Source: Phyllosticta citribraziliensis (lineage: Eukaryota). Taken from it: DNA of 64,000 bases. The notes below the pieces were generated by a model. That model worked only from the letters and a program-made list of their open reading frames with translations, was not told the origin of the DNA and made no database searches. The translations under genes were made by a program, and so were the position numbers. Where the stretch lies: NCBI RefSeq assembly GCF_038025025.1, contig NW_027117344.1, forward strand, positions 558,001 to 622,000, given 5' to 3'. Shown here piece after piece: positions 56,920 through 63,173 of the stretch. Numbering within the stretch: the first letter of the stretch is position 1; each line of letters starts with the position of its first letter.

Positions 56920-59900
56920 TCACCTCTGTACCTTCTTCACAGCCGCGGCGGCTGTCGACACCGCCGAATCGCTGCACCCGCTCCAGATGGCGCTCAGCCA
57001 GCCTGCCTGCTCAACCACTGGGTAAAACGGACTCGAAACGTGGCCTCCATTGTGACCAACGCCCGCGCTGCTGCTTGCAACGCTACCACTGGCCCAGCTC
57101 TCCCAGCTCGTGCCGGCAACAAACGCCGCAAGGTCGTCTCCGCCGAATGACGTTTCCAGGCCGTCCAGCCACGCATCGTGCTGCCGCTGCTGCTGACGCT
57201 GCGTCGGCGGAGGCGGCGCGGAAGGAGATCCCCACGCCGGTGGCGGTACGAAGCGCTGTTGGGGGGACAGGCTAGTGGCTGACGGAAGCTGCTGGTTTGG
57301 CGCCGGATACGGTTGAGTCAGCTGTTGGATCGGGGCAAAGCCGCCCGTCGATGTCGAGGGGCGCTCGTATAGGGGAGGCGCCCCGGTTGACGCCGAGCTG
57401 GACGCGGGCGGGGAGATGATGGGCGACTGGCCCGTCGTGGGTGGGGGCTGTTGGTGGGACAGCTCGGGCGAGGGGTTGGAGATGGGGATGCCACCCGGCC
57501 CGAAGGCAGCCGTCGGAGTTTGTTGCTTTTGCTGCGTGACAGCCGCGGCCGCGACGGTATTGATGGCGTTCCAGCGCTCGTGGCGGATCGAGTCGGGGGC
57601 CGAGGTGTTGGCGTCGACAGAATCCCGATGCGCATACGAGGTGCTGTCGCCACTGTCTCGACGGTTGCCGTCGGTGTCTGGGGCGTCGAGCATGTCCAGG
57701 TCTTGATCGGTGTCTTCGGAGCCCACGATTGAGCGCAGGTATGCTTCAAACTGCTTGCAGTCCTCTCGAGCCGACGAACTCGTCCATGCAGAGCTGGGCG
57801 GTGATGGAGCCGCCATTGCCTTGGTGTTCCGCTCATGTTCCTTTTTGATTCGCATGTAGTAGATGTGCACACGCTTCAACGTTCTAAACCATCCTTCGGC
57901 CATTTGGAGCGTTTTCCGCATTTGGCTAGTAAGTTCCAAGCCTTTGCGAGAAGCCTCGGCCCCCGGGGAAATGTCGACTTCGGGCTTGACAAGATCGCGG
58001 AACTGTGTGCCCTTGCTCATGTAGCCGTGAGGGTCCATCCACGGAAAGTTTATTGCGTAGACACCTTCCAGAGTGTAAGCACACGAGCAAAACTCGACTT
58101 TACAATACATACCTGCAAGTGCAGCTGAATAGGTTGCAAACCCCACGACGGGTGATTCCACCAAAACCCCCCAGTCCTGACACATTCGGAGGAGATCAAT
58201 GACATCGCGAGCGGTTTTGAAGAGCTCACGAGCGCTCTGTTCCCAAAACCCGTCTGGTGTTTGGTATTCCTCGGGTGAAAATGTCGGTGCATCGAGTGGC
58301 CCCTGAGGTCTGGTGCTTTTCAACGGTATGAAAGGAATGTAGTCGCGATGGAGAATGATGCCGCAAACGAGGTGCACGATGTGCATAAGCACAAACGGCG
58401 TCGACGTTCGGGATGTGATGTGCGCCGAAACGTTTCCCATGGTGAGGGTCATGTCGCGGGGTAGCGAATCCCTGAAGCTCGCGTGAAGCTTTTGCAAGGA
58501 GCTCCATGTTGAACGTTCATCCCACGGAGGGAATTGCTCCCGCCTGCCGACCGGTCAGTCTGAGTGGTGTGGCTAAATTAGGAACAGACGTACCTTCTGC
58601 CTCCGCTGCAAGACCACTTGACTATGCGGCCGTAGAGGTCTAGAATCTTGATGTACCGACTGAGGATTCCTTCGTCTCCTCCGACTTCCCACCTACTGTC
58701 TTCATCCTCGTCCTTGCCAAACGCGGAACGGTCACTACTAACGGGCGTTCCACCATTTGGAGACCCGTGTTTCGAGCCCAGGATCGTCGACGCTTTTCTC
58801 TGGGTCTGCAGTTGGACTCGGCTTGCGACGTCTTGAGCTTCTTCCCCCAGCATTAAAGTCTTGACCTTTTCGCCAAACAGGAAGGCTCGCTCGCTGCAAG
58901 GCAGCTGAATCCGAAGATCGCTCACGTTGAGCATCTGGGGCCGATACTTTCCGCTGCTGAGGAACCTATCCAGAATGAAGCAGCTCCAGAACGTTCGCCT
59001 CTTTGTTTCTTGTTCGATAAAGGCGTCAGCCTTGCTGCCAGACATGGTATCCCGGTTGAATTGGCCGGGACCTGAGGATCTCGCTGGTAGCATGTCGTCG
59101 AGTTCCGTATCGTACTGAAGGCCCAAGAGTTGTGCAGAGCGTATAGCAGTTCCGACGGCTATCCATGCCTTGGAACCGCGACACATGCCCCACTCGTGCA
59201 GCCCCAGCATGAGTAGGGCTTGCACGCGCTGGAGGTCCGGACTGCCCTCATCTTTGCGGTCTAGGTTTGCTCGGCATGCAGAAGCGTAGTACTCGGCAGC
59301 AACAAGTGGGTTCTGTTTGGCGCTTGACGGCGAGTGATGCGCGACAAGCTGGGGGTAAAATCGAGCTGTCAACGCCAAGAATGCTAGCAATAAGGGGGGC
59401 GACAGCGCCGGGAGAGAAGCGCTGTTGCTTTCGCCAAAGCCCGGAGGAGTCGCGCCTTGCAAGGACGATTGCCTGAGAGATTTCAGGAATGTCGGAGGGT
59501 GAAGAAATGGCAGATCAGTTGAATGATGGGCCTGGAAGATGTCAAACTGCAGCGGGTCAGCCAGGTTGGTAGCATACGCAAGTGCAGATCTTACCAGATC
59601 AGTCCACACTTTGGGCGTCAGGACATTCGAATCCAACGCGTCGACGAGAGCGTGTGGGCTTTCGCGCGTTGAAAGCACTGGAGCTCCTACCGAAGCCGAG
59701 CTTTTTTTCGGCCGCGGTTGGCGCCGGGGAGTCTGCAATCACACGAATAAGCGGTCTGAGGCCATCACGTCCAAAGCACGTGCGCAGAGTGTTGACAGTA
59801 AAGAGTAGATTGCGAGGAGCTCATCTACAGCGACCAGGAACAGGCACATTTTTCTCCAACGACACAATTCATGACTGGGAAAGCTGGGAATGGAAAGCAA

Positions 59901-60179
59901 ACAATGGCGCGCAGCAAACGACGGGACAGGAGGGCGGTTTGGAGGCGAAAACGGACATACCTCGCCAGCCGTGACTCTATCCAGAGCAGGGTTCCCTGCG
60001 TGGGTGTTGGTTTCGCGCTTGGCTATGGCGACTGCTGCGCCGGCACCTGCAGCGGCAGGCGAAGGATAGGTGCATTCTCTGCCGGTGGTTTCACAAGCTC
60101 TACACGTCGTGCCGACGCCATTGTTGACGCATTTTACTTTGCTTCTTCTGCAGCGGGCGCAGGCTATGGAGGACCTCAT
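56920..60179 (-). CDS. Zn(II)2Cys6 transcription factor with fungal-specific TF middle domain (AUG-initiated form)
   Basis: CARCRRSKVKC......CRAC......C cluster, PFLHPPTF and RRTFWSCFILDR. Introns at 59733-59960, 59547-59594, 58544-58593 and 58065-58112. Confidence 0.92.
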
Positions 60180-63173
60180 TCGAGGTTGCTCCGAGCGCCG
60201 CGCGCCCGCTTCAGGCACGGGGCGCTGGGTTTCTTGATGCACCGGAGGCAGCGGCGGCGGGCCCGCGGTGGTCGGAAGGGCTGGCAGGGCCGGAGTGGAG
60301 AGAGGCTGCGCCGGATAAGCCGGAAGATGAGCAGCGGCAGGGCTGGTGGTGGTTTTGCCGGCGGGGGAACTCGTGGTAGTAGGCCCGGGAGAGAGGAGGG
60401 ACGAGATGGGCGCGGCCGCGGAAATCTTGACGACGGGAATGGCGACGGCCAGACGCGAGAAGGGGCAGACGCAAAGACGGGCTGGGCTGGCTGAGGGCAA
60501 TTCGGAGAGAGCCAAAGCCAGGAGACGCGTCGATTCTGGCGGAATGGATAGACGGGTGGTAGAGTAGGTAGAGTACAGTAGGTCCGGGTCTGACGTATGC
60601 CGGGTTCGGAAGGGTGAACCTCGGAGCAGGAACTGAAGGGCAGCGCAGCGCAGCGCGACGGAAGCGGAATGGAAGCCAGACACGAACGACGAGAGGGAGA
60701 TGGGGAGAAGCGGAGAGGAACGAGAGCGGCTCAGCACCAAGTCAAAAAGAAGTCAGGTCGGCGGGAAAGAAGGGGAGGCGGGAGGGAGAGTCGAGGAGAG
60801 GAGAGGAGAGTCGAGGAGAGGAAGAAGAGGCGGCTCCGAGAACGAGCAAAGGGTCCGGCAGGTCCAAGGCAAGGCCAGGGTCTGTCTCTTTTGGACGAAA
60901 GGTCCGTAGGCTTTTGTAATAACATGGCCACGCGCGTTTGGCCGTCCGTCGCCCGGCGTAATCGGCACAGGCGATCCCTTCCGCGGGTCCCGTGGGCCGT
61001 GTCGCCCTAGATGGATGGGGTGGCCGCTCTCATCTCAGGCTGGCTGGGCTGGCGTGCAATGCCGAGTTGCTTTTTCACCTCTCTACGTACTGTATGTACC
61101 CTACGTCTTGCTGGCTGCTGTCTACGGCCGCACTGTGCCGCATCAAACGCCGTCGACGACCATGCCATGTTCACGCTTCTTGCCGGCCCGAGCTGCCCTG
61201 GATGCCCACAATTTCGGGTCAAGTTGTGGAATGCCGGCGGATGGAGGCCGTCCGTCGGCCTTGCAGCAGTCATCTCGGTATGGATGGGTGGATGGTGGAT
61301 GGACGGATACATGAGCAACCCAACACGTTCCAACATCCACCATCACCTTGATCGGAGAAGAGCACCACCCCTGTCGACGCCTGCTTCGGCTCGCCCGAGT
61401 AGCCTGGCTTGGCTGACGCGATCAGCCCGCCTGTCGGACAAGAACATGGCTCTACAAGTCATGGTGCCTTCGGCAACGAGCCGCGCCAGAGTCGCACTGC
61501 GGGGTTTCTCGTCGGCCCTCCTCAGACTCGGGATCGGGTGCGAGACTCTTGGTTGGAGCTTGCTCGTGCGTCAAGTGGCTTGCCTCTTCCGCCTCAGCTC
61601 CGTTCCTTCACTACATGGCCTTCTGGACATGGTTTTGGTCGGGCCTTTCCTTGACCCTCTGAAGCATCCAAGCGAAGTCTGCCTCATCCGAGGTCATCCT
61701 CCGGGGCCGACCTGACGGAGCGTCACCCGAGCCCAACAGAGGCTCTAGCAGCTGCGTGCCACAGTCCCGATCAAGGTGCCACGGCTGCGTTTTGACCTCG
61801 TCTCCGTCCTCGCTCCTCAGCCCTCGGAGCCTCGCGGGAGAGTGGCCGTGCAGCGAGTGTTCCTGACTACTCGTCTTAGCTACGCTGCTACGCTAGCCAG
61901 TGATGTACGAATACGTCTCGTCACTTTGCAATTCCCCGGGTAGTGGAAAGCTCATTGACTCGTTACGTCGGCCGGCGACGCCCTGCCGCGCCGCCCCGCC
62001 GAAGCATATCTGTCCCGTCGGCCTGGATGGCAAGCAATGCACCTAGCAAATCAAATGCTCCCAGCCTGCGGTGCAAGGTCGCGCAGGCCTGGCAGGACAA
62101 GCAATGCAGTCGATAAGCCCGCTCAACGCCATGAGCGCTGAAGAAGCGCGTGGTAGACACAATCAGAATGTACTTGGGCCGGCGCCTGTCTTTTGCCATG
62201 TGACGCGGGCGGTATCTAAGGAAGGTAGGTACGTAGTGGTCTCGAAGCCGCCCATGGGCTTGTGATGCACACCCAGCTCTAGCAAACAAGCCAGGTGCGC
62301 GCTTGTGGCCGCCCTTATGTCCAGCAGCGAGCGAGTCCTTCGAGGCGTGCGCATAGTCCAGGAGACGACCTAGCCCATTACATGTAGGAGGGGCTCGCTG
62401 CCCAACGTTGACGTCGACGACCACAGGACATGGTGGACGACGCTGCTGGGGGCGAGGGACAGGAGAGAAAGCTGCAGACGTCGGGCGGGAGTGCAGCGTC
62501 GCAGTGCTGCGGGCCTGAGGATGCTGTGTCCATGATGATGATGTTGTTGTTATTGTTGTTCCTGTCGCCGTCGCTGTCGCTGTCGTTCCTTGCCAGATGG
62601 ACAGACAGAGGGCGCCAAGAGTGGTCGGGCCAAACCTCCCCACTGCCTACAGAATACCACACCCCTCTTTCAAAGTTCACGCTGTCCTCGCCCACCAGTG
62701 ATCCCGCCTCCCACCCCCAGGCAAAAACGCCCTCCCCTCCCGGCCTGCTCGTCCACACAGACTCGTCGACCGCCAGTCGCCCGTGCGAATCCTCGCTTCC
62801 ATTCCACGTCTGCACGCTCGGGCGGACGGGCGCCAATCAGGCATTAAGCTCGCTCCCGAGAGACGGACGCTGAGCCACAGTCCGGCGGAGCTTGGGGTGA
62901 CAATTGACATCACCCAACAAACATCACCTCCACGGCCTGACGAGACCCTGACATCGTCTTTGCCCTCCTCGTCGCGACGACTGCCGCTGCCCCAGCCTCC
63001 GCTACACCTTTTCTTGGCACACGGCCACGCGTGGGTGCATCGGCCAAACCGCATGCTTTCCCCTGCGTCATCGCACGAGGCCTGATCTTGTACGCGACTC
63101 TGCCTCAGGGACCGCGCGAATAGCTCGACCGGCCCATTAACCTCTCCATCGACACAGGGACACGACCGCCAAA

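Follow-up and report, generated by a model that had tools for sequence, protein, structure and literature searches.

The DNA analysed here (the window) is a stretch of 64,000 nucleotides from Phyllosticta citribraziliensis (contig NW_027117344.1, positions 558,001 to 622,000 of the forward strand). At 56.9-60.2 kb, its minus strand carries a gene encoding a transcription factor with a Zn_clus domain close to the N-terminus (PF00172, E 5.3e-06) and a Fungal_trans domain downstream (PF04082, E 4.9e-26), as assigned by Pfam, which places the product among the fungal Zn2Cys6 factors with a Fungal_trans middle domain. All features described below lie on the minus strand. Exon 1 is 100% identical to a 961-residue P. 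citribraziliensis model (P0003), which begins at the ATG of the peptide MRSSIAC, and it shows 89-91% identity to models from P. citricarpa and P. capitalensis. This annotated AUG (60177..60179), the probable start of a short isoform, lies six codons ahead of the first zinc cysteine within the context CCTCGA-ATG-A, which has C at -3. An earlier interpretation of the locus made from the letters alone, which we call the sequence-only reading, had described this context correctly and had located the MRSSIAC start, with a position one base off (60180 for 60179). The remainder of exon 1, which encodes the Zn2Cys6 binuclear cluster, occupies 59961..60176, and its end is defined by an RNA joint at 59732|59961. 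We present evidence that an in-frame AUU codon (60423..60425), located 82 codons upstream of the annotated AUG, in all likelihood serves as the initiation codon of a longer protein.

The leader of this gene lacks ATG to an unusual extent. Upstream of the annotated start, the nearest ATG in any frame lies at 60925, which leaves an ATG-free gap of 746 nt, in agreement with the approximately 740 nt reported previously. Neither strand of the window has a longer ATG-free gap. When the leader was shuffled 5000 times at the mononucleotide level, only 0.7% of the shuffles were devoid of ATG. The frame that enters the annotated ATG remains open for 191 codons, up to a stop at 60755, which accommodates the earlier estimate of at least 187 codons. 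The segment joins the main open reading frame (ORF) in frame and without interruption, and it constitutes neither a separate nor an overlapping upstream ORF (uORF). However, the leader is rich in C and T (C 43%, A 12%), the other two frames contain only 2 and 1 stops over the same ~780 nt, and an equally long open frame appeared in 5% of the leader shuffles. Because all three frames are nearly free of stops, the openness of the frame is by itself weak evidence that does not exceed chance expectation, and the case for an extension rests on comparative evidence rather than on the open frame alone.

We also examined whether the leader is part of the transcript, using RNA contigs that cover 59500-61900. 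These contigs came from runs X1 and X2, which bear the same organism label as the window, from X4, which represents a relative, and from X9, which represents a relative within a plant RNA-Seq library. The contigs derive from RNA because they skip introns, although not both in every run: intron 1 (59733..59960, 228 nt) is skipped by contigs of X1 and X9, and intron 2 (59547..59594, 48 nt) by contigs of X1, X2, and X4. Contigs from all four runs continue without splicing past 60179 and 60425, reaching 60751 (X9), 60858 (X4), 60909 (X2), and 61450 (X1), and ATT 60425 is accordingly located inside the mature mRNA in 4/4 runs from three organisms, with the leader unspliced to at least 60751. The stretch from 60426 to 60909 thus represents an unspliced, ATG-free 5' leader that is colinear with the genome. 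No splice joint was detected in the leader in the four runs, in which the sole event was a diverged block at 60530-60582 in X9. Two outcomes that the sequence-only reading had named as fatal to its proposal, a transcription start site downstream of 60425 and an AUG-bearing exon spliced in from upstream, were therefore not encountered. The ends of the contigs differ from one another and are not transcription starts, and for this reason we do not assign a transcription start site.

To place the leader in an evolutionary context, metagenome contigs were scanned with a protein alignment (A1), which yielded 48 loci. A short motif described below is present in 34 of these loci, which together with the window provide 24 distinct contexts of 39 nt that are exclusively Dothideomycete- and Leotiomycete-like. 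Two of the remaining loci (L016 and L017) end at a contig edge before the motif position, and the others (L024-L034 and L043) have no motif, encounter an upstream stop at 8-170 codons, and look like other lineages that lack the extension. The 82 codons from 60425 to 60180 are open and in frame with the annotated AUG, and the same arrangement was observed in the 34 motif-bearing loci. When 16 locus pairs were aligned with MAFFT as nucleotides, blind to frame, 26/26 gaps in the interval from the ATT to the AUG were multiples of three, compared with 12/76 in the 240 nt upstream, and substitutions in the extension numbered 153, 141, and 370 at codon positions 1, 2, and 3; these counts are not independent because the locus pairs share ancestry, which tempers their weight, but the contrast at the ATT is sharp even so. 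The ratio of nonsynonymous to synonymous substitution rates (dN/dS) for the extension ranged from 0.06 to 0.46 (Nei-Gojobori, 22 pairs). Among the Phyllosticta relatives, X4 and X9 show no indel across 60180-60458, and the substitutions listed inside 60180-60440 fall at third (8), first (3), and second (0) positions, which serves as an indication only. Immediately 5' of this conserved frame lies a zone (60459..60486) with frame-breaking indels, where X9 lacks 28 nt at 60459 and X4 lacks 5 nt at 60479, and indels of 1, 3, 3, 1, +7, +1, and -1 nt occur farther upstream. Indels that shift the frame in close relatives, which would have spoken against the proposal, are thus absent from the segment itself, and the suggested alignment of orthologous leaders recovered a conserved frame, ATT codon, and motif.

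Taken together, these patterns indicate that the extension evolves as coding sequence and that the ATT marks the 5' limit of coding-type conservation. We are nearly certain that 60180-60425 is translated. The opposing view, which is that the leader is untranslated, that its conservation reflects a regulatory element of RNA or DNA, and that a C/T-rich composition accounts for the open frame, draws on the scarcity of stops in all three frames and on the shuffles described above. We regard it as extremely improbable given the gap periodicity, the excess of third-position substitutions, and the low dN/dS, and because no conserved secondary structure was found and the amino-acid motifs are kept over three fungal classes while the nucleotides diverge.

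The sequence-only reading had proposed two candidate start codons, ATT 60440 (60438..60440; GTCGCC-ATT) and ATT 60425 (GTCAAG-ATT), which are indeed located 87 and 82 codons upstream of the ATG. Of these, ATT 60425 is conserved, whereas ATT 60440 is present in the sequence but is not conserved outside Phyllosticta. The isoleucine codon homologous to 60425 is ATT in 34/34 motif-bearing loci and in the window (24/24 distinct contexts) and is never ATG, ATC, or ATA. As a control, the invariant isoleucine of RSSIAC in the same 24 sequences is encoded by ATA 11 times, ATC 7 times, and ATT 6 times, and all other nearby isoleucine codons comprise 26 ATT, 24 ATC, and 9 ATA (44% ATT). This comparison indicates that the codon at 60425 is conserved beyond what the amino acid demands. 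The nucleotides ahead of it are similarly constrained. Over the 24 contexts, the base is A (19) or G (5) at -9, C at -8 (23), C at -7 (24), G at -6 (24), C (20) or T (4) at -5, and A (21) or G (3) at -3, which amounts to a purine at -3 in 24/24 contexts and to a Kozak-like consensus of A/G-C-C-G-C/T-N-purine-N-N-ATT. Typical contexts are ACCGCCAAA-ATT and ACCGCCACC-ATT; that of the window is GTCGTCAAG-ATT, in which GTCGTCAAG (60426..60434, positions -9 to -1) has A at -3 and G at -6. This block is kept as contiguous nucleotides without 3-nt periodicity, and positions -24 to -13 are unconserved. Past the ATT, conservation takes on a 3-nt period in which second positions are fixed and third positions vary freely.

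Several loci leave little room for any other start. No in-frame ATG occurs between the upstream stop and the ATT in the 34 motif-bearing loci, and the distance between the two is 3 codons in L047 (TAA ACC GCC ACG ATT), 6 codons in L004, L005, L042, L044, and L045, 7 codons in L018, and 10 codons in L010, L012, and L013. The interval from stop to ATT in L004 and L005 contains no further near-cognate codon. An ACG immediately precedes the ATT in several Leotiomycete loci (L039, L042, and L044-L048), which provides a second, adjacent near-cognate codon that could share initiation there. Overall, the proposal of an AUU-initiated extension carrying an ISSLL-type motif has gained support from coding signatures, from an invariant ATT in a Kozak-like context, and from unspliced RNA contigs, and we infer that translation very likely starts at AUU 60425.

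Certain observations weigh against this assignment. AUU ranks among the weaker near-cognate codons, and the base at +4 is never G (A 11, C 11, and T 2 over the 24 contexts). A conserved downstream hairpin was not found by RNAalifold (0 pairs; -9 to +70, 20 sequences), which rules out a hairpin that boosts initiation at the AUU. The annotated models of some lineages contain an in-frame AUG 4-22 codons upstream of the isoleucine. In addition, CTG 60452 and ATT 60440 are both in frame and lie within the indel-free zone shared by the two Phyllosticta relatives, and they could add minor starts. The last point permits a variant in which the extension is translated but the start in Phyllosticta is CTG 60452, ATT 60440, or several codons together, and CUG is generally a better near-cognate codon than AUU. 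However, neither codon is conserved beyond Phyllosticta, the 24 contexts show no conservation upstream of -9, orthologous proteins share nothing upstream of the V/A-K-I position, where their divergence is complete, and in L004 and L005 the ATT is the sole near-cognate codon available. For these reasons, ATT 60440 was ruled out as a conserved start, and we consider the variant as a whole improbable.

A further point on the same side of the balance is that the same-species X1 contig to 61450 would place five ATGs (60925-61168) into some transcripts. There may be an upstream or alternative transcript at 60925-61450, in which case the leader would gain ATGs at 60925, 61033, 61143, 61163, and 61168. 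The X1 contig in question terminates in adapter, and a separate contig of low depth is present in X2 at 61034-61313. The long form could in that case be initiated by an AUG on an upstream exon or on an alternative transcript missed by the RNA contigs, and a public P. citricarpa model of 1238 residues (P0001) does join upstream exons to the extension frame. We give this explanation very little credence. The four RNA runs contain no splice joint in the leader, any colinear AUG farther upstream would be cut off by the in-frame stop at 60755, and in L047, where the stop lies 3 codons before the ATT, the nine bases between them contain no AG dinucleotide. Furthermore, the frame of P0001 relative to the window switches upstream of ~60480, matching the 5-nt indel, which is typical of non-coding sequence. 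The upstream exons of P0001 (window region 60480-61620) match window frames at ~61343-61570, with the frame switch near 60480, and they look like an annotation artefact forced by the missing AUG.

We next consider the extension itself. The 81 codons that follow the AUU (SAAAPISSLLSPGP...EAGARRSEQPR) occupy 60180..60422 and include an ISSLL-SP motif at 60387-60407; the extension peptide stretch reads SAAAPISSLLSPGPTTTSSPAGK. Protein comparison relied on orthologue models that have a chance upstream in-frame ATG and on ORF-style contig calls, which carry the extension in the same frame. Two blocks are conserved. The first has the form V/A-K-I-(S/T/N)-S-x3-5-(I/L)-x-(S/A/N)-(I/L)-L-(S/A/D)-x-P (VVKISAAAPISSLLSPGP in the window), within which the motif can be written I/M-x-S-x3-5-Φ-x-S/A-Φ-L-S/A-P (ISAAAPISSLLSP in the window). 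The second, EAG(A/P)RRxEQPRM, directly precedes RSSIAC, and its basic patch ARRSEQPR adjoins the DNA-binding domain. AlphaFold2 applied to the 24-sequence alignment returned a mean predicted local distance difference test (pLDDT) score of 57.9 with one 3-residue helix and no fold. The extension is thus predicted to be intrinsically disordered, which suggests that its conserved pieces are short linear motifs. On the basis of its L-L-S-P, and of the S/T-P-K-R in Leotiomycete, Sordariomycete, and Dothideales sequences, we propose that the motif probably acts in docking or as a target of phospho-regulation, specifically in the long form.

The extension peptide recurs in Dothideomycetes, Leotiomycetes, and Sordariomycetes. 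Dothideomycete carriers include Eremomyces, Pseudovirgaria, Lophium, and Aureobasidium. The Leotiomycete loci (L035-L048), which feature the motif T-A-T-I-P-S-P-H-S-L-A-A-I-L-S-P, match proteins of Diplocarpon, Lachnellula, Glarea, Sclerotinia, Botrytis, Monilinia, and Hymenoscyphus; several Leotiomycete NCBI models are flagged 'partial' and start a few residues ahead of the motif, and models from Sclerotiniaceae, Diplocarpon, and Hyphodiscus have an ATG 4-22 codons upstream. A profile built from the 24 extension peptides (A3) matched 110 representative proteins at E <=0.001, from which we selected the 40 that align from a profile position of 1-5 onward. Position 1 is isoleucine in 35/40 of the selected matches, two are off by two residues, and three have N, H, or A. 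The Sordariomycetes among them are Paramyrothecium, Colletotrichum, and Fusarium; the motif is clear in the first two, and the Fusarium protein has alanine at the first position. Ten proteins that are Mycosphaerellales-like (P0017, P0025-P0028, P0033, P0051, P0076, P0079, and P0105) feature the variant R-L-A-D-S-L-L-Q/H-S followed by P-E-S-P, often with an ATG seven codons before, and this subgroup may represent a lineage whose extension became AUG-initiated. The first methionine of a Venturia nashicola protein (P0012) aligns to the isoleucine column in A1, which might reflect replacement of AUU by AUG; the alignment is short and weak, and we did not use it as evidence.

With the coding segment and its probable start defined, we considered how the two AUU- and AUG-initiated forms could be produced. 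Ribosomes engaged in cap-dependent scanning would traverse a long, unspliced leader, the mapped part of which is free of AUG. A minority fraction of small (40S) ribosomal subunits carrying initiator tRNA (Met-tRNAi) would initiate at AUU 60425, helped by the conserved purine at -3 and the CCG(C/T) block at -8 to -5, and would produce a protein with 82 extra N-terminal residues. Ribosomes that bypass the AUU would scan on, meet no AUG, and start at AUG 60179, which yields the annotated short form. We favour this combination, a long form from AUU 60425 and a short form from AUG 60179, as the overall explanation with considerable confidence, and we think it somewhat more probable than otherwise that both isoforms coexist in this species through leaky scanning. 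Consistent with selection for leaky scanning, no ATG in any frame occurs between the ATT and the AUG in the window and in 8 other distinct core Dothideomycete loci, for which the probability of finding none is 0.10-0.30 per locus by mononucleotide shuffle and 0.11-0.66 by codon shuffle. A methionine beside the zinc cluster is present in 24/24 aligned sequences, although it sits one residue farther from RSSIAC in Leotiomycetes (K-M-V-R-S-S compared with P-R-M-R-S-S), and a shift of this kind fits a conserved start codon better than a conserved residue. The weak context of this AUG was rejected as a conserved feature: C at -3 is present in the window as the sequence-only reading stated, but it is lineage-specific, with A at -3 in L004, L005, L007, L011, and the Leotiomycete loci.

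The scanning explanation does not extend to every lineage. The Dothideales loci (L018-L023) and the Leotiomycete loci (L035-L048) contain out-of-frame ATGs downstream of the ATT and ahead of the zinc-cluster AUG, which counts against the two-isoform assignment and means that simple leaky scanning to a short isoform is not general. Lineages probably vary in their isoform balance, and some may produce mainly the long form. Taken to its limit, this observation would make the AUU-started long protein the only functional product, with the zinc-cluster methionine an ordinary internal residue and the short form noise. Such ATGs would intercept scanning ribosomes, and purifying selection on the extension was evident in every comparison examined. 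However, the absence of ATGs between the two starts in the window and the 8 core Dothideomycete loci, the retention of the methionine despite its one-residue shift, and the many orthologue models in other fungi that start exactly at MRSSIAC (including many from Eurotiomycetes) argue for a second start, and any ribosome that passes over a weak AUU has to initiate at the AUG that follows. We therefore judge a long-only product unlikely and retain the AUU and AUG pair as the preferred explanation for P. citribraziliensis.

Whether this arrangement is itself an adaptation is a more speculative matter. We entertain, as a tentative proposal toward which we lean less than not, that the AUU is a deliberately weak, selected start that has been kept since before the split of Dothideomycetes and Leotiomycetes, and that the gene encodes a translationally tuned two-isoform regulator. 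If so, start-codon stringency, as set by the balance of the initiation factors eIF1 and eIF5 or by stress, would govern what proportion of the product is the long form, and the I-x-S...Φ-L-S-P motif, which is often followed by S/T-P-K-R, would be a phosphorylation-dependent docking site or a degron that alters the stability or the partners of the long form.

Natural starts at AUU, UUG, or ACG in cellular genes are exemplified by mammalian TEAD1/TEF-1 and yeast GRS1/ALA1; AUU is said to be the sole start of TEAD1, and the extensions of GRS1 and ALA1 are mitochondrial presequences. The architecture described here matches accepted criteria for non-AUG N-terminal extensions, and the closest system is cpc-1 of Neurospora crassa. 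Conserved extensions of CPC1 are initiated there at near-cognate ACG, AUU, and CUG codons that lie in good context (Ivanov et al., 2017, mBio, PMC5487733). As in cpc-1, the gene encodes a fungal transcription factor, has a long leader with conserved in-frame near-cognate codons that include AUU in a near-optimal context, and specifies an extension conserved in its amino-acid sequence, which for cpc-1 holds across Pezizomycotina (PMC5487733). In contrast, cpc-1 encodes a basic leucine zipper (bZIP) factor and has two regulatory uORFs and three conserved near-cognate codons, whereas the present gene encodes a Zn2Cys6 factor and has no uORF in the mapped leader; the AUU is kept in 64/100 species in cpc-1, compared with a single ATT kept in 24/24 contexts here; and the cpc-1 extensions are experimentally proven (PMC5487733), whereas the present AUU start is proposed from sequence and RNA contigs.

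Two other systems share individual properties with this gene. Human PTEN has an AUU-initiated, N-terminally extended proteoform that was found because its 5' leader bears phylogenetic signatures of coding (Tzani et al., 2016, Open Biol, PMC4892431), which parallels the detection of the present extension with its probable AUU start; unlike the present gene product, PTEN is a mammalian phosphatase, and the protein and the function of its extension are unrelated (PMC4892431). Fungal 6-phosphogluconate dehydrogenase acquires peroxisomal isoforms via non-AUG initiation (PMC7214817). Its extension is likewise hidden in an annotated 5' untranslated region and conserved among fungi, but it constitutes a peroxisomal targeting signal on a metabolic enzyme (PMC7214817), whereas the present extension is a predicted disordered segment on a nuclear DNA-binding protein in which we recognised no targeting signal. 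The literature searched yielded no account of a zinc-cluster factor that starts at a non-AUG codon, nor of the present gene.

These findings have consequences for annotation. Current gene models very probably miss a conserved N-terminal piece whose AUU start, 82 codons upstream, is unchanged over at least two fungal classes. Public models are inconsistent: some begin at the internal AUG, others carry the flag 'partial', and others take in spurious exons from upstream (P0001), and consequently a conserved N-terminal segment of 80-120 residues is usually missed. Among these models, P0001 nevertheless holds the extension, with 4 changes in 87 residues. The gene presents an unusually clean natural case of a probable AUU start, with a codon that is invariant in 24/24 contexts, a Kozak block conserved at the nucleotide level, and in-frame stops a few codons upstream, and it could serve as a reference case for the prediction of near-cognate starts in filamentous fungi or as a reporter of start-codon stringency. 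It also points to an uncharacterised regulator, the activity of which may be set at the level of translation.

Additional features of the locus were observed. Most of the Leotiomycete-like loci (L035-L048) have an apparent intron in the zinc-cluster coding region right after K-V-K-C (RRSKVKC), with L035 reading through; the Dothideomycete loci and the window have no such intron, and some public models, such as P0126 and P0128, appear to be mis-spliced there. A C/T-rich, partly repeated tract (CTCCTCTCCTCTCCTCGACTCTCC and similar) lies at 60785-60860, in the leader or promoter, where RNA depth is meaningless because many short high-depth contigs (up to ~46000 in X4) come from elsewhere. Finally, X2 record 8 and X4 record 12 span part of intron 1 (59835-59960) contiguously with exon 1, which suggests intron 1 retention or pre-mRNA in those two libraries.

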